From Malassezia furfur (Eukaryota), in NCBI GenBank assembly GCA_052055015.1, contig JBQJIT010000078.1: DNA of 33,962 nucleotides; one strand, 5' to 3'. Below, in pieces: positions 12,018 through 33,962 of the stretch (positions within the stretch are counted from its first letter, which is position 1; the number at the start of each line of letters is the position of its first letter). Made by a program: the position numbers and the translations under genes. Below the pieces are notes generated by a model, which was not told the DNA's origin, did not search any database, and saw nothing but the letters and a program-made list of their open reading frames with translations.

Positions 12018-12668
12018 ATGCAGGCAGCCGGCGAGCAGGGGAACGCAGAGGCGGTTGCTGCCGCGGACTCGCACTTGTCCGAGTACGAGTCGCGTGATCA
12101 TGCTGCGTCTGAGGTGCGCGAGGCCGACGGCGAGGATGCCGAGCTCGAGGCCATGAAGCAGCGCGTCGCCGAAATGGAAGCGGAGGCGGCCAAGCTGCGC
12201 GAAATGAACGACGCTGCCGAGAACGAGCTGGGTGGCGCAGGTGCGGCCAGCGCCTTCCCTACCGAGGAAGAGAAGATGGAGGTGGACAGCCGGAGTATCT
12301 ACGTGGGCAACGTACGTCCCTCGGCACTGACGCAGGTCGACTATGGCGCGACGCCCGAAGAGATCCAGCAGCACTTCCAGAGCTGTGGCACAATTAACCG
12401 CGTGACCATCCTGTGCGACAAGTTCACGGGGCACCCCAAGGGCTTTGCGTATGTCGAGTTTGCCGACCCATCGTTCGTGGAGAACGCGTCGGTGCTCAAC
12501 GAGTCGCTTTTCCGTGGGCGCTTGCTCAAGGTCACGCCGAAGCGGACCAACGTTCCTGGCCTCGCGGCGCGTGGCCGCGGGCGCGGGCGGGGGTACCGTG
12601 GCGGATACCGTGGACGCGGTGGTTACCGGCCGCGCGGGTCGTGGCGCGGACGCGGCCGTGGGTACTAG
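12018..12668 (+). CDS. PAB2: Nuclear poly(A)-binding protein Pab2/Sgn1 (coiled coil, RRM, RGG tail); in-frame intron 12312-12335 (24 nt)
   Basis: [74 protein letters not shown], and an RG-rich C-terminus. Confidence 0.92.
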
Positions 12669-16786: not shown

Positions 16787-17975
16787 TTACGGTACGCTAT
16801 AGAGCCAAATGGGCGTCGTGCGCGCGGCAGCCCCCGCGCCAGGGCCGCTCGCGGCCATTTCGGTGCCGCTGTACGCCAACAGCAGGCGCGACGGGTGCCA
16901 CGCCACTGTATTGATCGTAGCCGAGACGGGAATTTTGTGGGCGACTCGGTTGGATGCCATAGACATCTGCGGTGAGCCAGGCATAGTACGCACAATATGC
17001 AGCGCGGCGTCTTCGCCGCCGGCCGCGAGCCACTCGCCATCGAACGAGAAATCGAGGCTGCGCGCAGGGAACTTGAGCGAGGAAAAGACGTGCAGCGACT
17101 CCCACTCGGCCGCGTCCCAGATGGCAATGGTGCTGTCGGCCGCACCCGTCGCGACGACGCGCGACGTCGGGTCCCAGTTAATGCAGAACACAGCGGCAGG
17201 GTGCACGGGGCGCGTCATGACGCACTCCCAGTCCATCGAGGCATCCAAATTGCCCTCACGCAGCTGCGTAGGCACGCGCAGGAAACGGATCTGTCCGCTG
17301 CCCATCGGCAGCAGCAACAGGGAGCCGTCCGGTGACCACGCCAGCTCATTGATCTGCGTCAGCCGTAAGTGTGCGTACCTCTTCACGGTCCGTAGCGCCA
17401 TCTTTGATGGTGCGCACCAGCGAGCCCTGCTGCGCGTCCACAAGCACCACCGTCTCGCTCTTGTCACCGGCCGTCAGGTAGCGTCCGTCGGGGCTGTATG
17501 CAAGGTTGATATTGCTCCCCGGCGTATGAATTACGTTGGCTGCTGCCGGCGCACGCAGGTCCCATAACCGCACCGTCTTGTCCGTGCTGCCCGTTGCCAA
17601 CAGCGCAGGGTGCGCCGGGTTGCAGGCGACGGCCGAAATCTGGTCGCTGTGTCCCACGAGTTCTTTGCTACTGCGCACGTCGTGCTGCGTCAGAAAGGCC
17701 ACGTACGCTTCGCTCGGGGTACCACACACGCGCGATGCGGTCGTGCCCACCGCTAACGAGCGCGTCGCCGTCCGAGGTCCACGCCAGCGCACGGATCCCC
17801 AGACGGTGCCCGCCGCGCAGCTCTTTGGGCGTAGGCGACGAGGCGAACGGCGGATACTGCGTCAGCCCACGGCACCTACCGACATCCCGCGACGCGTGAA
17901 GAACGATGCATCCGAGTACTCGTCCTCAATCGCGCCCGCACGCCGCTCCGGCGCGCTGTGTGCCATGGCGGCCAT
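16787..17975 (-). CDS. TEX1: THO/TREX WD40 subunit Tex1/THOC3-like; introns 17857-17879, 17685-17706, 17354-17378, 16967-16993; start may be 17966
   Basis: Spliced WD40 protein: ELVGHSDQISAVACNPAHPALLATGSTDKTVRLWDLR, GSNINLAYSPDGRYLTAGDKSE, VATGAADSTIAIWD, RSLDFSFDGEWLAAGGED, INTVAWHPSRLLLAYSG. Confidence 0.82.
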
Positions 17976-23872: not shown

Positions 23873-25272
23873 CTAAAGAACGGCAATATCTTTGGCCAAA
23901 TCGCCCAGCGCGGCACAACACGCTAAAATTGGGCCACGTGCTAGGGCAGGAACCTCTCGGAGAATCTGGCGGTTAGTGTTCGATCAATGTGGGGACGTAC
24001 CGCGAGAGGCTGGAGCGTTGGACGCCCTGCAGCCATAGCAAAAACTTTGTAATCATTTCCATGCTGCATGACTTGATCAGGGTCATCAACACCGGGAGGG
24101 AGGGGGCGCGGTAGCTCGCCATCCACGATCGCGACGGGCAGTGGGACTGGTGGAGGCGCAGCGCTTTGGAAACTGTGCCGATATCCCTGGTCCAACTGTC
24201 TCACAATATCGCTGTAGGCAAACCACTCGTTGTTGGCCGTATCCAGGATCTCACTCGGTACGTAGGTCGCTTTGTAGCGCATTTTTGTACACGTGTGGAT
24301 ATAGTAACCTGTGTGAATCGCATGCACCTACCCATGTAGTACCATTGGACAGATGGATGAGCGTCGCGGTGCAAACGCCTTGCCAGGGCAATCTCATTCA
24401 ACCCGCTAATTTTTCCGAGTTCCCAGTGCTCAAACTTGGGGTCGTAGAAAAGATAGACGCTGCTGACGCAGCTGGGTAACAGGTCCAGGACGCCCACAGC
24501 AATGAGCTGGCCTCGGTCTGCGTTAGTCGACAACCGCGTACATCGGTACTCTTGATGAAATGTGCTGTACTCGGGATAGACATTGTCCTCTTCATTTTTC
24601 TGTTGTTAGCATTCAGCCTACCGGAAACGGAGAATCAACCAAGAATTGTTCCCAGCCGTTCCGCGAGCTAATTTCCGATTCGGGCTCGCGGTGCACATGC
24701 GCCTGGTATTTGCGGAACAGGGCATATTTTTCGTCCGTGCTACTCGCAGGGACGAGCCGAACCTGAATGCGTTCGGGCAATGCTTCCTTATACGGCTGCT
24801 CCGCATAGGCCTTTGCGCCGCCATCCTGGTCGAGGACCAAAGCGAGCCGCTCTTCCAAGTCCCAAGGATGGTCGGATGCCCATTTACCTTTCCATTTGGC
24901 CGGCTTGGGATTGGGCGACAGATCCCAGTACAAATTGTTGAGCGTGCGCTTTTGTTTCCGCGACGGCGTAAACTGCGCGTGACTCACGCTGGGTTAGCAC
25001 GGCACCTACCGAATGGGATGGTGAACGCAGCACGTTCTTGAATTGTCTGGCTTGTACAAAATCGTGCCAGAACGGCGCCAGCCACGGTCAATGAGCGCCT
25101 GGTAGGTTGCTGGCGTCAAACGCAACCCCTGCGTAAGCCCTCGGCGTACCCATGCAAAGTACGAATAGCTCGTGTCCTTGCGTGACTTTTTTCCTCCTTG
25201 GTCCGCGCAGTAGCCACATGACGACTTTTCGTAGCCAACCGGCTGAACAATGCTAAGCTCGTCTACGCGCAT
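23873..25272 (-). CDS. ATE1: Arginyl-tRNA-protein transferase Ate1; introns 25129-25149, 24989-25009, 24600-24621, 24518-24541, 24309-24331, 23966-24000
   Basis: [89 protein letters not shown]. The last intron gives a final exon [18 protein letters not shown]. Confidence 0.92.
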
Positions 25273-25338: not shown

Positions 25339-27420
25339 ATGTCCAGCACTGGAGTACCGAGGCGGGGTCGCTGGGCTGCGACGCGCCGGCGTACGTCGCA
25401 GGCCAAGTCGGCGGCCACCACGTCGAAATTGCACCAGAGTGTCATTTCAAATGATGCACTCGAAACGCGCATCCAGAACGAGATGTCACCGTTTCCTCCG
25501 ACATTTACCGAGAACGTGTCGCGGCGCGAAGTGCCTCGGCCTGTGGAGGAGGGCCTGCCGAGCTTGCGCGACGTCGCACTGCGCATTGCAGGACAGCATT
25601 TCTCGACGCACATTCTGCCTACTCCCGAGGTGTTTGAGCGCTTGCAGGGAACCCTGCGAAGCGCTCCGAAAACGTTGCGCAAGCGGCGAAAGATGGACGA
25701 CGATTATACCCCCGAAGACGACGATGTGCAAGTGCAGTCGGACACGCGCCCGCCTCGCATTGCCATGACGTATACACAGGCGCTGTACTTGAGTGAGATG
25801 AACCGCGACCTGCTCAAGCACCTCCCCCCCGTCATGGTCGATGCGCTCTTCGATGCTATTTGCCTGTACTCGCCATGGTCACTGACGAAGGAGGTGTTCT
25901 CGACGTATTTTCTACCGCATGTCGCCCCCGAAAAGACGCGGCAGGGGAGTGTGCAGGGCGAGGTTCCGCCGCTGCCCCTGGATGCTCGCGTGCGCACTCG
26001 CATCTTTCTCCCTGCCTCGCTACCGCTGTTTTCCCAGGACCACAAAACGGCCTCGCTCTTGCTCTCCGTGTTGGCAGGCGCTTTGGCGTTGTCGCCCAGC
26101 GCCGCACGTCTGACTTCCGTTATCCGCGAACTCGACCTACACGGGCTCACGCGGCTGCAGAATGCTTCCCTGGTACGGTTACTTCGTGCGCCGCCAAGCG
26201 CACCCAACGCACGGCCCACGCCGTGGCATCTGCGGCACGTCGCCCTGCCCGGATGCACGGCGATTGGTGACGCGGCCGTTGCGGCACTCGTGCGTGCCAC
26301 AGGAGAAACGCTTGAAGAGCTTGACCTGGCGATGACGTCGGTGAGCACGTCGTCGCTCCGCGAGATCGGAATGGCCTGTCCCCACCTGCGCTCGTTGCGC
26401 GTCGCGTGGTGCGAGAATTTTGCCGAAGATACCTTTTCGGAGGCGGTGAGTGTTGCGGTTGCCCAGTGTGCGGATGCCAAACCGCCGCGCATCCCGTTCC
26501 AGCTGCTCGTTTCGGTGGATGTGTCGCACACCTCGGTCGGTGACTTGGCCATCGGCGGTCTGCTCCGGCTGTGTGGTTCACAGCTCCGCTCACTGGATGT
26601 GGGGTACACCAACGTTGGTGGGAGTGGAAGCCTGGACATGCTCCGTCTCGGGCTCGGCCTGCCTAACACCAGTGCCGCGCATCCCTCGCCGCTGGAGCAT
26701 CTGGGACTGGGCGGATTGTGTGTACACAGCACGTCGCTGCTTGACCTGGTCGAGCACTTGCTTTCCGAGCAAGGTTCACTATCGTCGCTAGACCTGGACG
26801 ACCTCGTCGAGTACGCACGGCGGCACCAGTCCAACCTACAGGGCCGCACCGGCGTGTCGGGTGCGACGCTCCACCGACTTGCCGAAGCCGTCGCAAGCGC
26901 CGTGCGCCGGCGGCAGCAGCCGTTTGTGCGGTTCTCGGCGCGCGGTGACAAACGGCGCGCATCTGTACCTGGGCACTGGGCCGTGCCTGGCGCGGCGCGA
27001 GACGCAACAACACTCGGTGCGACGACGCTCGGTGCAACCCTCTTCCGCCTAATGACTACCTGCCGCGTACGTGCCTGACGACTCACGCAGTTCCTTGCAC
27101 TCAATGGCCTGCAGCTCGATGCCTACGATCTCGACGAGCAGGGCGGCGTGCCGCCGGCAGTGCACACGCTGCACCTGAGCAGTACAGGACTGCGCGACGA
27201 CGCGCTCGATGCGCTCGTCCCCTGGACCGGCGCGCTCGAATCGCTCTACTTGGATGATACCCCCGTGACGTGTAGGTTACCTGCTGACGCAGCCTCGGCC
27301 CTGGACCGCCTTGTACACCACAACCCGCACCTAGTGCTCATCAGCCTGTCGCAGTGCCGCGGCATCCCCGTACGCGAGCGGCGCAACTATTTCCAAGCCT
27401 GTAGCGAACGTGCTGAATAA
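25339..27420 (+). CDS. Leucine-rich-repeat (RNI-like) protein of unknown function; introns 27067-27090 and 27272-27292
   Basis: Repeats such as LRHVALPGCTAIGDAAV, LEELDLAMTSVS, LRSLRVAWC, LRSLDVGYTNVG, LESLYLDDTPVT and LVLISLSQCRGI. N-terminal LPSLRDVALR motif. Confidence 0.75.
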
Positions 27421-27453
27421 TGTGAAACCGCCCTTTTTTGGTTCTCGACTGCA

Positions 27454-30400
27454 ATGCGTGCCGTGGGGGAGGTCGAGTACGAGTACCTCTCGTGCGCGGT
27501 GAACCGCACGACGCACGTCGCGGACTGGCTCACGGTCCGCAACGACGAGCAACGCGCCGATGTGTACGTGTTTGGCGTGCACAAGGGCTTTGCCGCCGTC
27601 ACTGCACCCCAGGACCTGCACTCGTGTGCCGGGCACCGCGAAGGATGGGGCGCCCCGGCCGACGTGTACGTGCTCAAAGCGGCGCCCGCACACGATACCC
27701 ACGCCGCGCTCATCGTCGGGCACTACAACGGCGCGCTGCACGTGTTCCAGCCGAAGCTGCGCGACGGGCAGGTCGCCTGGACGCACGACGTCCAGCTGCC
27801 CCAAGCGCACGCATCCTCGGTCACGGCGCTCGGTGTGCTGCGCGACCCCGCGTCGGTAGCGCGCGGCGCTGACCTCTTTGTGTCTGGCAGCACCGACGGC
27901 ACGCTCAAGGTCTGGCACCTCGCGCGGGGACCGTGCATGCAGGCGACGCTCGTGCAGGAGATTGCGCTGGGCGGAAAGTACCCGCTGGACATTGCGCTCG
28001 TGCACCTGCCCGACGCGGGTGCCGAGCCCGTAACGCTCATGGCCGTCGCGCTGACCGACAAGAAGGTGCATGTGTATGTGCGCGAGGCCGGCGCCTTTAC
28101 GCTGCGCCTCGCGCTCGAAGGCCACGAGGACTGGGTACGTGCGCTCGACTTTGCCGTTGCGCCGCGCGGCCAGGACGGTGTTCTGGACGTGCACCTGGCG
28201 TCCGCATCGCAGGACAACAACCTGCGTCTCTGGCGCATCCAGGCGGCGTCGGCGGCCGACGTGCCCGACACCGACACCACGGACGCCTTCGAGGCCATGG
28301 CGCGCGAGCTGGTGCCGAGCACGGACCAGGCGATCAATACCAAGAAAAACTGGCTCACGCTCCACGATGCCCGGCGCTGGGCCATCTCGCTCGATGCGCT
28401 GCTCGTCGGCCACGACGCATGGGTCACGGGCGTGCGCTGGCTGCCGGCCCTGGACGCCGACGCACAGCAGGCCGCGCTGCTTTCGAGCTCGATGGACAAT
28501 AGCATGATCGTCTGGTCGCCGCGGGAGCCGGGAACATCGACGTACCCCCGTCTTGCCGACGATGCCGCGTCACAGGCACTGTGGCTTCCGGTTGCGCGCC
28601 TCGGCGACGTCGGCACGCTGAGCGGCGGCTTCCTCAGCGCGCTTTGGCATCCCGCCGGCAACGCGGTCCTCACGCACGACCGCCACGGCGCGACGCATCT
28701 GTGGGCGCAAGATGCGTCCACGGGGCGATACGCGCCGTGTGCGGTCGTGTCCGGCCACGCGGGGGCCGCGCGCGGCGTCGCGTGGGAGCCGTACGGCGAC
28801 TACTTCCTTTCGACAGGGTACGTGTCTCACTAACGCAGCGTCGACCGCACGACGCGCCTCCACGGCACCTACTGTACGCGCGGCGATGACGAGGATGCCT
28901 TGCCGCCGCGCTCGTGGCACGAGATGGCGCGGCCGCAGACGCATGGCTACGACCTGCAGGCGGTCGCGTGGCTCGACCGCGCGGCATTTGTGAGCGCCGC
29001 GGACGAAAAAGTGATGCGTGTGTTTGGCGCACCGCGCAACTTTGTCGAGAGCGCGCGCGCCTTGCACATGGTGCAGGAGCATGTGCACGCGACGCATGTC
29101 GTCGTGCACGATGCCGGTGCGCCCGACGCGTGGCAGCATCCCATGCGACTGGACGGCGCCATCGAGGCAGCACTCGCCGACGACCCGACAGCGCTTGCGG
29201 TCCTTGTGTTTAGCGATGCGCTTGCGGGCGAGGCGCCTGCCGTGTCGCTCCATGCCGTCGAGTACTTCCTGCAGCAGGTGTACACCAAGGCATGGGGCAT
29301 CGCGGCCCGCCGCGACCGCTTGCAGACGGACATTACCGTGTACCTTGTCCCGAGCGCACTGTCCAACGCCGCGGGGCACACCGCGGCCGAGCTGTGGGCC
29401 AACACGTACGGCCGCGCCGTCACCGCCGTGTGGGCGGTCGGCGACGCAGCGCAGGTCGACTGGCTGGCACCGGTGCTGCGCGCGCGGCCTATCCCGGTGC
29501 CCGCGAGCGACTCGACGCCGGGCGATGCGCAGGGCACGTCGTTCCCCCGTGCGGCGACCGTGGCGCTGGGCGGCACGTTCGATCACCTGCACATTGGGCA
29601 CAAGCTGCTGCTCAGCATCGCGGCCCTGTGCACGACGCGGCGCCTCATTGTGGGCGTGACCAGCACCGAGCTGCTCGCGAAAAAGAAGCACCGCGCGTAC
29701 GTCGAGCCGATCGCCGTGCGGCTTGCGGCTGTGCGCCACTTCCTGCGTGCATTTCGCCAGGCGTTTGGCGCGCTTGAGCTGGACGTCGTGCCCATCAGCG
29801 ACGTGTGTGGCCCGGCGGCGACCGACCCGACCTTGGACCTGTTGGTGGTCACGGAAGAGACGGCAAAAGGCGCAGATACCATTGCAGAGGAACGGCGCAA
29901 GAACCAGGTGCAGGCAGTCGATGTGCACATCGTGTCGCTGGTGGACGCAGCCGACCACTCGGACAAGGTCGGGAGTACGGCGATCCGTGGCTGGCTCGAG
30001 GCGAAGCAGATCGCGCCAGGGCATGAGACGCCGCTGGACGTCGACCTCGCCGCGGCACTCGCTGCTGCGCCTGCGTCTGTCGACGTGCCGGCGCTTGGCC
30101 TGTCGAACCGCGCGGCCGATGCGGTCGAGGCGGATACGGCACCGGCCCCGACGCCCGTCCTGAGCACGCCGCCGAACCCCGAGCAGCTGCAGGCCGCAAC
30201 ACTCTGGCTCGAGCTCGAAAAGCTGTACGGACATGGCTACGAGCTGCTGAGCGTCGATGCGGATCCGCGCACGCGGCTCATCGCGAGCACCTGCAAGGCG
30301 ACGACACCGGCGCATGCGGTGGTGCGCCTCTTTGACGGGCGCGAGCGGTACAAGCCACTCGCCGAGGTGCTCGAGGGCCACACGCTGTCGGTGACGCGCG

Positions 30401-30918
30401 TGCGCTTCTCACCCTCGGGCGAGTACCTGCTGACGAGCAGCCGCGACCGCTCGTGGCGCCTGTTCCGCCGCGCCGGTCCGCGGTACGAGCCGTACGCCGG
30501 CGAGCGTGCACACGCGCGCATCGTGTGGGACTGTGCGTGGAGCGTAGATGGGCGCACGTTTGCGACCGCATCGCGCGACAAGACCGTCAAGGTGTGGCAG
30601 CTGGACGCGGCCTCCGCGAAGCGGTACGCCCCCCTCGCTACGATCGAGCTCGAGGACGCAGCGACCGCCGTGGCGATGGGCGATGGCGACGTGCTCGCCA
30701 TTGGTCTCGAGCGTGGCGAGGTGCGCATCTACGAGCCGGATGCGACCCGCACGCACTGGACGTGCGCAGCCGCCCTGCCCTGGCACCACACAGGGACCGT
30801 GCACCAGCTGGCCTTCCGGCCGCGGGGTGCGTGGCAGGACACCTACAACCAAGTACCCTACATGCTGCTCTCTGCGGGCGAAGATGGGTGCGTTCGTGTG
30901 ATTTCGTGGCATAGCTAG
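27454..30918 (+). CDS. ELP2: Elongator subunit Elp2 (WD40) with an internal Cab4/PPAT-like nucleotidyltransferase insertion, ~1147 aa; intron 28818-28838 (21 nt)
   Basis: [95 protein letters not shown]. The insert carries [17 protein letters not shown]. Confidence 0.92.
29075..30060 (+). other. Phosphopantetheine adenylyltransferase (Cab4/CoaD-type, HIGH family) domain embedded in ELP2; borders approximate
   Basis: [19 protein letters not shown] (core at 29569-29601), [70 protein letters not shown]. Confidence 0.85.
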
Positions 30919-31304
30919 CGACCGTACTTTTGCAACTCCCATTCGCGGTTGTCCAGTGGGCACACTTGCCGCGTCTTGAGCCAACGCGAGATGCAGTGGA
31001 AGTGGAAAGCGTGCTGCGTGAGTGGCGCGACGTACGTTGCACTGGCCCCAAGCCACGGTGCACTCCTCGGTGGTGGCCGAGCCCTGGTTGGCCTGGCACT
31101 CGATGCCTGCGTCAGTCGCGCGCGTGCGTACACAGCTCCATGATGTGATTCCGGCAGATCGCACACTGCGTTAGTCGCGCCACGTACGTTGTCGACCTGG
31201 ATGTCCCAACTCCAGAGACACACGCTGTTCCACTGCGTCAGCCGGGAGGCACGCACCTTTTTCACCTGGAAACGAGGCGTTTCCTGCGGCGTGTCGACGT
31301 CCAT
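30915..31304 (-). CDS. RBX1: RING-box protein Rbx1/Hrt1; introns 31233-31256, 31166-31187, 31107-31131, 31014-31035
   Basis: [82 protein letters not shown]. Confidence 0.96.
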
Positions 31305-31426: not shown

Positions 31427-33962
31427 ATGGCGAGCGAACGCACGCCGGCGCCGGGTGCGTCGCTGGACGAGATGCGCGAGCGCTCGCGCCAGGAGTATCT
31501 GGCGAAGCGCGCACAGCAGCAAGTTGAGCTGCTGCGCCGCGAGATCCAGGACGAAGAGACATTCTTCCGTGGCGTGCAGCTCACCAAGAAGGAGCAGCGC
31601 GAGCTGGAGCACAAGCGCGAGCTGCTGCGTCTTGCCGAGGAGCACGCTGCGCTCGATGCACCGACCGAGACCTATGTGCTTCCCGAGGACTACCTCACCG
31701 AGCAGGGGCGTGTCGACCGCAAGCGGAAGCAGGCGGCACTGCACGACCGACGCTGTACGTTGCGCACCGCTGACCCAGACGACGACCGCAGCCACCGCAA
31801 ACGCGCCCCGCCCGAGACAGATGCATTTGAGCGCGAGCAGATCGAGCGCTCGATGCTGCTGCAGGAGCCTGCGTCGCGCGCGGAGGACGACGCGTTCGAC
31901 TTTGTGATCGACGAGTCGCAGACCATCCAGTTTATCCTGGACAAGCAGAAACACGGCGCCGTCGAGCCGCAGCGCTCGGCCAAGGACATTGAGCTTGAGC
32001 GCCGGCTGCACGAGGCCGAGGAGCGTGCGTCGTCGATCGAGGCGACGCGCAAGTCGCTGCCGGTGTATGCGCTGCGCGAAGAGTTCCTCGCCGCGCTGAA
32101 GGAGCACCAAATTCTGATCGTCGTTGGTGAGACTGGCTCGGGCAAGACGACGCAGCTGCCGCAGTTCCTGCACGAGGCGGGATACACGCGCGACAACCAG
32201 ATCGTCGCCTGCACGCAGCCGCGCCGCGTCGCAGCGATGAGTGTTGCTGCGCGCGTCGCCGAAGAGATGGGCGTGCGGTTGGGGCGCGAGTGCGGCTACA
32301 GCATCCGCTTTGAGGACTGCACGTCGGATGACACGGTGGTCAAGTACATGACGGACGGCATGCTCCTGCGCGAGTTCCTCACGAACCCCGACCTGGGCAA
32401 CTACTCGGTGATTATGATCGACGAGGCGCACGAGCGGACGCTCAACACCGATATTCTGTTTGGCCTGATCAAGGACATTGCGCGCTTCCGGCCGGACCTC
32501 AAGGTGCTCATTTCGTCTGCGACGCTCGACGCGGAAAAGTTTAGCGTGTTCTTTGACGACGCGCCCATCTTCTTCGTCCCCGGACGCCGCTTCCCGGTGG
32601 ACATTCACTATACCCCCCAGCCCGAGGCGAACTACCTGCATGCAGCGATCACGACCGTCTTCCAGATCCACACGACGCAGCCGCGTGGCGACATCCTCGT
32701 CTTCCTCACCGGGCAGGACGAGATCGACGTCGCGATGGAGAACCTCGAGCAGACGACGCGTGCGCTAGGCGGCAAGATTGCGGAGCTGATCGTGTGCCCC
32801 ATCTACGCGAACCTGCCGAGCGACATGCAGGCGCGCGTGTTTGAGCCGACGCCGCCGGGCGCGCGCAAGGTGGTGCTGGCGACCAACATCGCCGAGACGT
32901 CCATCACGATCGACGGCATCGCGTTTGTGATCGACCCAGGCTTTGTGAAGCAGAACTCGTACAATCCGCGCACCGGCATGTCGGCGCTGAGCGTCGTGCC
33001 GTGCTCGCGCGCCTCGGTGAACCAGCGCGCGGGGCGTGCGGGGCGTGTGGGGCCGGGCAAGTGTTTCCGCCTGTTCACCAAGTGGGCGTACAGCAACGAG
33101 CTCGAGGAGAACACGGTGCCCGAGATCCAGCGCACGAACCTGGCGAATGTCGTGCTCCTGCTCAAGTCGGTGGGCATCCACGACTTGCTGAATTTCGACT
33201 TCCTCGACCCGCCGCCGACCGACACGCTGATCCGCTCGCTCGAGCTGCTCTATGCGCTCGGCGCGCTCAACGACCGCGGCGAGCTCACCAAGCTCGGGCG
33301 GCGCATGGCCGAATTCCCGGTAGACCCGATGATGAGCAAGGCCATTCTGGCCAGCGAAGAGTACCGGTGCACCGAGGAGGTGCTGTCGATCGTCTCGATG
33401 CTTGCCGAGAGTGGCAGCCTCTTTTTCCGGCCGAAGGACAAGAAGCTCCACGCGGACCGTGCGCGGCAGACGTTTTTCCGGCCGGGCGGCGACCACTTTA
33501 CGCTGCTGGCGATCTGGGAGCAGTGGGTCGAGAGCGGGTACAGCAGCGCGTTCTGCCTCGAAAACTTCCTGCAGCCCAAGACGCTCGGCCGCGTGCGCGA
33601 CATCCGCGACCAGCTGCTGCACCTGTGCGAGCGCGTCGAGCTGGTGCCGGAGTCGAACCCGAACAGCGCCGACCTCACCGGCATCCAGAAGGCGATCGTG
33701 TCGGGCTACTTTATGAACACGGCGCGCCTCCAAAAAGGCGGCGAGACGTACCGCGCCATCAAGCAGAACAGCAGCGTGTACGTACACCCGTCGTCCTGCC
33801 TGTACAAGCACGTGCCGCAGCCACGCTTCCTGTGCTACTACGAGCTCGTGGAGACCTCGAAGAACTTTATGCGCCAGGTCATGGAGATCCAGTCGGAGTG
33901 GCTCATTGAGGTCGCGCGGCACTACTTCTCGCGCGACGACGTGCAGGACAACACCAAGCTGC
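31427..33962 (+). CDS. PRP2: Spliceosomal DEAH helicase Prp2/DHX16 (S. pombe Cdc28); intron 31755-31778; 3' end runs off the window
   Basis: [112 protein letters not shown]. Confidence 0.9.

Follow-up and report, generated by a model that had tools for sequence, protein, structure and literature searches.

The DNA studied here is a stretch of 33,962 nucleotides (nt) from the skin yeast Malassezia furfur (GenBank assembly GCA_052055015.1, contig JBQJIT010000078.1), read on one strand from 5' to 3' and referred to at its full length as the window. On its plus strand, at 27454..30918 (ATG at 27454, stop codon at 30916-30918), lies a gene for the Elongator subunit Elp2 that appears to carry, inside its second WD40 propeller, a complete enzyme of coenzyme A (CoA) biosynthesis, a phosphopantetheine adenylyltransferase (PPAT) of the Cab4 type. 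All features of this gene given below are on the plus strand.

Gene model and domains of the fused Elp2

The gene is covered by two stop-to-stop open reading frames (ORFs) in a single frame, 27421-28833 and 28834-30918, with a single TAA between them. This stop codon sits within GTACGTGTCTCACTAACGCAG (28818..28838), a 21-nt segment in which GTACGT serves as donor, CTAAC as branch site, and CAG as acceptor, and which a sequence-only reading of the locus had taken for an intron. As a spliceosomal intron it holds up: joining 27454-28817 to 28839-30918 yields 3444 nt, that is, 1147 codons and one terminal stop, and the spliced exon junction is colinear, residue for residue, with intron-less orthologues. 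Exon 1 (27454..28817) encodes the N-terminal WD40 propeller together with the beginning of the second (residues 1-454 plus two bases of Gly455), as assigned from WD40 Pfam matches, the GHEDWV motif, and colinearity with the 1147-residue Elp2 of M. yamatoensis. Exon 2 (28839..30918, stop codon included) encodes the remainder of the second propeller, into which the Cab4-type module is set. When the gene was scanned for combinations of donor, branch site, and AG within 120 nt, only the 21-nt intron was found, and the same pattern gave 24 matches in the whole window, some of them nested alternatives and most 21-37 nt long, several of which coincide with ORF breaks in neighboring genes. For M. restricta, a published table lists a median intron of 30 nt (PMC9241646, Table 1), and the annotation described in PMC6473144 allowed introns as short as 15-20 nt. 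Given the sizes of the window candidates and the short introns of M. restricta, a 21-nt intron in the Elp2 gene is credible.

Outside the insert, the protein is colinear with characterized Elp2 over its full length, and the signature motifs are conserved. Pfam assigns WD40 or propeller families to the products of both exons, and the order of domains is WD40 - CTP_transf_like (PF01467) - WD40, as had been expected from the sequence-only reading. The two consecutive WD40 beta-propellers by which Elp2 is recognized were found both with Pfam and in sequence matches to the PDB. WD40-repeat proteins, which accumulate score from many repeat matches, were set aside; among the other PDB sequences, Elp2 of yeast, mouse, and human matched the exon 2 product best (E 2.6e-58 to 4.1e-51). 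For yeast Elp2 (5m2n_A, E 2.6e-58) the alignment is split, with yeast residues 428-471 on query residues 25-68 and yeast residues 489-733 on query residues 410-632, so that about 340 extra residues stand here where yeast has about 17. This agrees with the earlier statement that typical Elp2 has only a short loop at this place, and the split alignment, the continuous frame, and a PF01467 match flanked by WD40 matches all support the view that the locus encodes Elp2 with an in-frame insert. In alignments, the motifs GHEDWV, GDEK, VPxLGLSN, EKLYGHG, and SRDR.W are retained, and no variation occurs at residues H223, D225, W226, or P872-N878 across all 42 aligned Elp2 rows; positions 201-204 of yeast Elp2 (HEDW) are described in PMC5286394 as important for tRNA modification. 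The segment directly ahead of the insertion (28990..29055) corresponds to approximately yeast 452-471 (5m2n_A) and is conserved in fused and unfused Elp2. Elp2 resumes at 30067..30915 with the VPALGLSN loop (yeast 495-502, within yeast loop 484-532), whose V, P, L, G, L, S, and N are invariant in all 42 rows, and with the remaining WD40 blades, aligning to yeast 489-733.

The insert itself was found at 29056-30066, about 340 residues with its linkers, in good agreement with the roughly 330 residues (29075-30060) delimited at the outset. It begins with a poorly conserved N-terminal linker without a conserved Met (RALHMVQE, 29056..29079), followed by an alpha/beta N-domain (29080..29505), a variable linker defined from alignments and the structural model (29506..29550), a Rossmann-type PPAT domain of the archaeal/eukaryotic type (29551..30006; PF01467, phmmer, and VIA-align), and a poorly conserved C-terminal linker leading back to Elp2 (30007..30066). 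The PF01467 match, at residues 243-383 of the exon 2 product, scores 35.4 bits against a cut-off of 21 (E 1.5e-8) and spans positions 2-131 of the 133 in the profile. In a phmmer search of the PDB with the insert, the only match below E 0.1 was 3do8_A, “Phosphopantetheine adenylyltransferase” (E 5.2e-10).

Structure prediction points the same way. An AlphaFold2 model covering window positions 29002-30120 and built with 28 fused homologues has a predicted local distance difference test score (pLDDT) of 85.3 and a predicted template modeling (TM) score of 0.86, and in it the module is predicted to fold as a compact two-domain unit. Foldseek ranked 3do8 first for the module, and VIA-align placed model residues 186-315 on 3do8_B with Z 15.1 and a root-mean-square deviation (rmsd) of 2.6 over 122 aligned residues at 31% identity; next came 3glv_B (Z 11.3) and the cytidylyltransferases 5x3d_A and 2b7l_A (Z 10.7-10.8), so the closest solved fold of this half is a PPAT, ahead of other cytidylyltransferases. 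The N-domain (model residues 27-168, with block pLDDT mostly 72-96) resembles universal stress proteins (USP-like, HUP-class fold), with VIA-align giving 3qtb_A at Z 9.3 (rmsd 3.2, 119 aligned), 3s3t_A at Z 8.7, and several others at Z 7.3-8.7. Membership of this domain in the Usp family (PF00582) was considered and rejected: there was no Pfam match at E <= 0.01 in the window protein and none at E <= 1 in 24 stand-alone homologues, no Pfam family was found for the domain, and an ESM Atlas search with it gave no usable match. In the model, therefore, the N-domain is to be regarded as USP-like by fold only.

Stand-alone proteins of 319-364 residues from Tilletia and Agaricomycotina match nearly the whole insert, aligning from their Met, which falls just past the Elp2 boundary, to their C-terminus, which falls just ahead of the point where Elp2 resumes. 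Because of this end-to-end correspondence, the insert represents a whole two-domain Cab4-type gene product, consisting of the USP-like N-domain and the PPAT. The sequence-only reading had called the insert PPAT-like, and the PPAT fold and motifs indeed appear to be intact; what has to be revised is its extent, which is not a PPAT domain alone but the complete two-domain protein.

PPATs are defined by the HxGH nucleotidyltransferase signature and by a C-terminal motif of the ISSTxxR type. We counted motif residues in an alignment of 29 sequences with the fused architecture and use its numbering here. The HxGH-type signature (29569..29604) is represented by G190, G191, T192, F193, D194, H195, H197, G199, H200, and K201, invariant in 29/29, as are the residues of GGTFDH.H.GHK, GVT, GPA, and T.ET and, in the K..ST..R motif, K322, S325, T326, and R329. 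The last of these motifs reads KVGSTAIR in the window (29965..29988), where it would form the C-terminal nucleotide-binding motif, and has as its aligned counterparts ISST in 3do8 and K(M/I)SST in Agaricomycotina. The nucleotidyltransferase and Elp2 motifs quoted at the outset were all located where they had been placed. Among Malassezia, identity to the window protein is 54-81% in the PPAT part, 43-68% in the WD40 parts, 23-37% in the N-domain, and 22-48% in the C-terminal linker. By this measure the PPAT part is the best conserved part of the protein, and, because it has the highest identity and its catalytic motifs are invariant in all 29 sequences, it is apparently under purifying selection.

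Distribution and history of the fusion

To survey Elp2 proteins for the insert, as had been proposed, the exon 2 product was used as a query and the best 120 of 700 matches were examined. Among these, 29 combine PF01467 with WD40 families, two more (P0018 and P0067) are fragments holding part of the insert, and the other 89 are ordinary Elp2 proteins of 713-893 residues that cover 33-50% of the query. Nine fused proteins come from named organisms, eight of them Malassezia (M. yamatoensis, M. psittaci, M. vespertilionis, M. cuniculi, M. pachydermatis, M. nana, M. caprae, and M. sp. CBS 17886) and one Kalmanozyma brasiliensis. An exhaustive HMMER search with the insert, of which the best 150 of 3716 matches were examined, returned 17 fused forms or fragments thereof and added Tilletiaria anomala, Meira miltonrushii, Violaceomyces palustris, Pseudozyma flocculosa, and Ceraceosorus bombacis; three shorter matches were verified as fragments with WD40 and PF01467. 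The fusion thus spans Malasseziales, Ustilaginales, Violaceomycetales, Georgefischeriales, Exobasidiales, and Ceraceosorales, and when 12 fused Elp2 proteins were aligned with 3 unfused ones, the insertion fell at an identical site in all 12 of the former. The nearest named relatives of the window protein are those of M. yamatoensis and M. psittaci (63-64% identity), its sisters in every tree.

The survey therefore extends the same-site fusion across Malassezia and several orders of Ustilaginomycotina, and the recurrence of one architecture at one site in many independent assemblies supports the earlier view of a domain insertion. Ustilaginales, Violaceomyces, Tilletiaria, Meira, and Ceraceosorus carry the fusion as well, so that it is older than Malassezia and not specific to compact genomes; the suggestion that genome compaction drove it is disfavored by the same distribution. 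No description of an Elp2-PPAT fusion was found in searches of the literature, where the abbreviations PPAT and CAB4 mostly matched unrelated subjects. It is visible in public protein records, in which the fused proteins are named only as Elp2.

Stand-alone PPATs were found in Tilletia horrida, T. indica, T. walkeri, T. maclaganii, and T. controversa and in Agaricomycotina, with relatives named pantetheine-phosphate adenylyltransferase in Moniliophthora, Psilocybe, and Leucoagaricus. The Elp2 of T. horrida (P0112, 893 residues) has WD40 matches only and the Tilletia PPAT P0142 has PF01467 only, so Tilletia keeps ELP2 and PPAT as separate genes.

How Tilletia came to have two genes bears on the history of the fusion. 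In a tree of the PPAT module (without Ceraceosorus P0143 and P0132, which the motif filter missed), all Ustilaginomycotina, fused and Tilletia alike, form one clade with support of 99 in the Shimodaira-Hasegawa-like approximate likelihood ratio test (SH-aLRT), unresolved within. A tree of Elp2 with the module removed places T. horrida as sister to Tilletiaria (90), within a non-Malassezia clade (92). We also concatenated Elp2 and PPAT for 20 fused taxa, T. horrida (P0112 with P0135; P0145 was left unused), and eight Agaricomycotina with both proteins, and here too Tilletia falls within the non-Malassezia clade (ultrafast bootstrap 92, SH-aLRT 95). The nested position implies a secondary fission. 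A single clade of all fused proteins was not rejected by the approximately unbiased test, either with Elp2 alone (p = 0.158) or with Elp2 and PPAT together (p = 0.0546). Ribosomal DNA trees put Tilletiales among other exobasidiomycete orders, as described in PMC7451774. From these comparisons we favor, as a history that is still unproven, a single early gain, after which a clean split in Tilletiales would have restored two genes.

Several database records touching on these proteins deserve mention. Stand-alone PPATs of T. horrida (P0135 and P0145, 358-364 residues) are named “Elongator subunit elp2” in NCBI and UniRef, presumably through transfer of the name from fused proteins. The T. horrida records form two PPAT clusters, P0135 (four records) and P0145 (three records), which are 52% and 50% identical to the T. 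indica protein, respectively; they could be either paralogues or divergent lineages held under one species name. The cluster of the Meira miltonrushii protein (P0133) has a member of 1243 residues (P0283; clustering was at 90% identity) that is recorded under the fern Adiantum nelumboides, probably reflecting fungal DNA in a plant assembly. A protein of Pseudohyphozyma bogoriensis (P0139, 1738 residues) named “N-glycosylase/DNA lyase” has a PPAT domain at residues 123-278 that is 52% identical to that of the window; the record probably results from the merging of gene models, but it could instead represent another PPAT fusion, in this case in a yeast of the Pucciniomycotina.

Interpretation of the nested enzyme

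We consider it likely, with a probability of roughly 0.8, that the locus encodes one bifunctional Elp2-PPAT polypeptide of 1147 residues, in which a complete Cab4-type PPAT is nested in a surface loop of the second propeller. A whole CAB4 gene would have entered the ELP2 loop once, early in Ustilaginomycotina. The module is predicted to be an active PPAT that converts 4'-phosphopantetheine and ATP to dephospho-CoA, and the Elp2 part would still serve Elongator, the enzyme being suspended at the base of the loop that extends to the Elp1/Elp3 interface. This reading makes no claim of coupling between the PPAT and Elongator activities.

The placement at the loop comes from comparison with yeast. 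In the alignment to 5m2n_A, the insertion site corresponds to yeast Elp2 residues ~472-488. Dauden et al. (2019) describe loops 242-254 and 484-532 of yeast Elp2 as becoming visible at the interface with Elp1 and Elp3, the latter loop being invisible in free Elp2, and describe Elp3 as carrying a lysine acetyltransferase (KAT) domain that uses acetyl-CoA (PMC6620098); elsewhere, Elp2 is said to clamp Elp3 (PMC10018365). Because the site adjoins loop 484-532 as that report delimits it, the module would hang from the N-terminal base of the corresponding loop.

In fused fungi the nested module is probably the only PPAT of the cell. When a stand-alone Tilletia PPAT was searched against proteins of 189-602 residues, the best 120 of 258 matches comprised five from Tilletia, two fragments of fused genes, and 113 others from Agaricomycotina, Pucciniomycotina, Tremella, or Lachancea or without a name. 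No named stand-alone PPAT from Malassezia, Ustilaginales, Meira, Tilletiaria, Violaceomyces, or Ceraceosorus was present among those 120.

Several points weigh against the bifunctional polypeptide. The case for a sole PPAT comes from this one word-indexed search, in which the best 120 of 258 matches include unnamed rows, and the sensitivity of such searches is limited: with the insert alone as query, just 10 matches covering 39-52% of it were returned, and the Tilletia proteins that HMMER found were missed. In all Ustilaginomycotina, the stand-alone Tilletia enzymes included, Gly takes the place of the initial Ser of the SST motif, whereas Agaricomycotina and 3do8 have SST. A module of 340 residues beside the loop that in yeast packs on Elp1 and Elp3 could in principle disturb assembly. 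The gene model and every homologue compared with it are predicted proteins. Finally, the Elp2 frame is free of stops throughout the insert (29056-30078), none of 5000 shuffles stayed open in that frame, and GC content by codon position in the insert (0.71-0.76, 0.43-0.52, and 0.83-0.85) matches that of the flanking Elp2 exons; but the openness of the frame is weak evidence when taken alone, because the high GC content of the analyzed DNA (0.62-0.74) keeps frames open and one antisense frame over the same interval is stop-free as well.

A stronger claim than ours would be that the fusion exists because PPAT works with Elongator: the enzyme might supply or sense CoA, dephospho-CoA, or acetyl-CoA near Elp3, or dock the CoA-synthesizing enzymes on Elongator, and modification of U34 would then follow CoA metabolism. 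We regard such tethering as rather improbable. What speaks for it is the position of the insert, directly N-terminal to a loop that in yeast (484-532) is ordered at the Elp1/Elp3 interface, together with the acetyl-CoA-using KAT domain of Elp3 (both as given in PMC6620098) and the retention of the fusion across several orders; in addition, the bacterial PPAT structures 3l92 and 3x1j are titled as having CoA and acetyl-CoA bound, so the fold can bind these ligands. However, this support is positional, Tilletia manages without the fusion, long retention needs no coupling once a stand-alone gene has been lost, and no paper linking Cab4 or PPAT with Elongator was found in searches of the literature. 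Read in the manner of a “Rosetta stone,” the fusion would mark PPAT (Cab4) and Elp2 as physical and functional partners. Elongator might then read, or be supplied locally with, metabolites of the CoA pathway, wobble-uridine modification and hence translation might be tuned to CoA status, and a weaker, non-covalent contact between Cab4 and Elongator might be expected in unfused fungi such as yeast and Tilletia. We offer this extension tentatively, and consider it, too, to have the odds well against it.

The module could instead be a catalytically dead PPAT with a structural or regulatory role within Elp2, the real PPAT being encoded elsewhere; we hold this to be less probable still. The glycine in place of the first Ser of the SST motif would fit such a loss of activity, and the absence of a second PPAT was judged from the search among proteins of 189-602 residues. 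Yet the same GST variant is common to the stand-alone Tilletia enzymes, the HxGH block and the other motif residues are invariant in all 29 sequences, and no other part of the protein is as well conserved as the PPAT part; the best 120 of 258 matches examined above likewise held no stand-alone PPAT from a fused lineage.

A third possibility, which we consider very unlikely, is a nested gene, with the insert either excised as a long intron during maturation of the Elp2 mRNA or transcribed as CAB4 from a promoter of its own. The insert does equal a complete gene product, and high GC content may keep frames open by chance. Nevertheless, in every fused sequence seen, the frame of the insert is continuous with Elp2 on both sides, even though the lineages are just 32-68% identical and differ by many indels. 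The boundaries lack a conserved Met or stop, both of which the stand-alone Tilletia proteins have. Introns here appear to be 21-37 nt long, in keeping with the median of 30 nt listed for M. restricta (PMC9241646). In agreement with the sequence-only reading, no signals that would splice the insert out were found: a search for the branch motif CTRAY across 28830-30430 found none, and the scan of the gene found no short-intron signals of donor, branch site, and AG flanking the insert. An assembly or annotation artefact such as a chimeric contig is extremely improbable, since nothing was found in its favor and the same architecture recurs in the NCBI genomes of at least 14 named species and in ENA and Logan contigs.

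The fused protein can be compared with several known systems. Elp2 of Saccharomyces cerevisiae (5M2N, 4XFV), mouse (8AVG_B), and human (8PTX_B) has the same two WD40 propellers and is colinear outside the insert; the yeast protein differs in having only the ~17 residues between 471 and 489 where the window protein has a folded enzyme module. Stand-alone fungal PPATs from Tilletia (344-364 residues) and Agaricomycotina (319-350 residues), among them the pantetheine-phosphate adenylyltransferases of Moniliophthora roreri and Psilocybe cubensis, share the two-domain layout at 32-40% identity to the insert. Each has a gene to itself, complete with start and stop, whereas the window module has neither and is embedded in Elp2. 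We infer that yeast Cab4 is the orthologue of the module from names and from one Lachancea match rather than from the yeast sequence. The archaeal-type PPAT 3DO8 of Archaeoglobus fulgidus is like the C-terminal half of the module in fold and motifs, but it is a single domain of 148 residues without the N-domain or a WD40 context. A precedent for a PPAT fused to another protein is the COASY-type PPAT-dephospho-CoA kinase (PF01467 and PF01121), of which P0122 and P0123 were among the closest matches in the insert-only search (36-39% identity over the PPAT part). The COASY fusion, however, joins consecutive enzymes of one pathway end to end, whereas in Elp2-PPAT the enzyme is nested in the scaffold of an unrelated pathway. 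Tandem HUP-class proteins, such as ethanolamine-phosphate cytidylyltransferase (3ELB/4XSV) and UspE (4R2K, 5CB0), also have two Rossmann-like HUP domains. Their Foldseek alignments extend along the entire module but superpose poorly (rmsd 15-21, TM 0.19-0.28), and the likeness lies in domain classes only.

If the bifunctional polypeptide is real, it would clearly exemplify the nesting of an entire enzyme in a WD40 loop. Elp3 draws on acetyl-CoA to modify wobble uridines in tRNA, and the product of PPAT is the immediate precursor of CoA, so a fusion kept across several orders of a subphylum may serve as a natural hint linking CoA metabolism to tRNA modification. ELP2 is dispensable in yeast; in fused fungi it is probably essential, because it would carry the only PPAT, which would be relevant to genetics and to drug-target thinking in Malassezia. 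Annotation has been misled in both directions, with Tilletia PPATs called an Elongator subunit and fused proteins called Elp2 only, and the latter naming hides a step of the CoA pathway from metabolic reconstructions.

Short introns and neighboring genes

Candidate introns of 21-24 nt, with the pattern GTACGT/GTAGGT ... CTGAC/CTAAC ... CAG, are frequent in the window and lie at the extreme low end for fungi. Examples from the pattern scan are 27067-27090, 27272-27292, and 12312-12335 on the plus strand and 31166-31187, 31233-31256, 24989-25009, and 17685-17706 on the minus strand; the first of these contains an in-frame stop that breaks the upstream ORF. Genes around ELP2 are tightly packed. 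Upstream, the stop codon of a gene for a leucine-rich-repeat protein (27418-27420) lies 33 nt ahead of the Elp2 ATG, and downstream the Elp2 stop codon overlaps that of a convergent minus-strand gene for an RBX1/APC11-type RING-H2 protein (30918-31172, ORF end at 30915), which has two mini-introns. Beyond it, on the plus strand, a gene for a DEAH-box RNA helicase (31571-33961; DEAD, Helicase_C, HA2, and OB_NTP_bind) runs off the end of the window.

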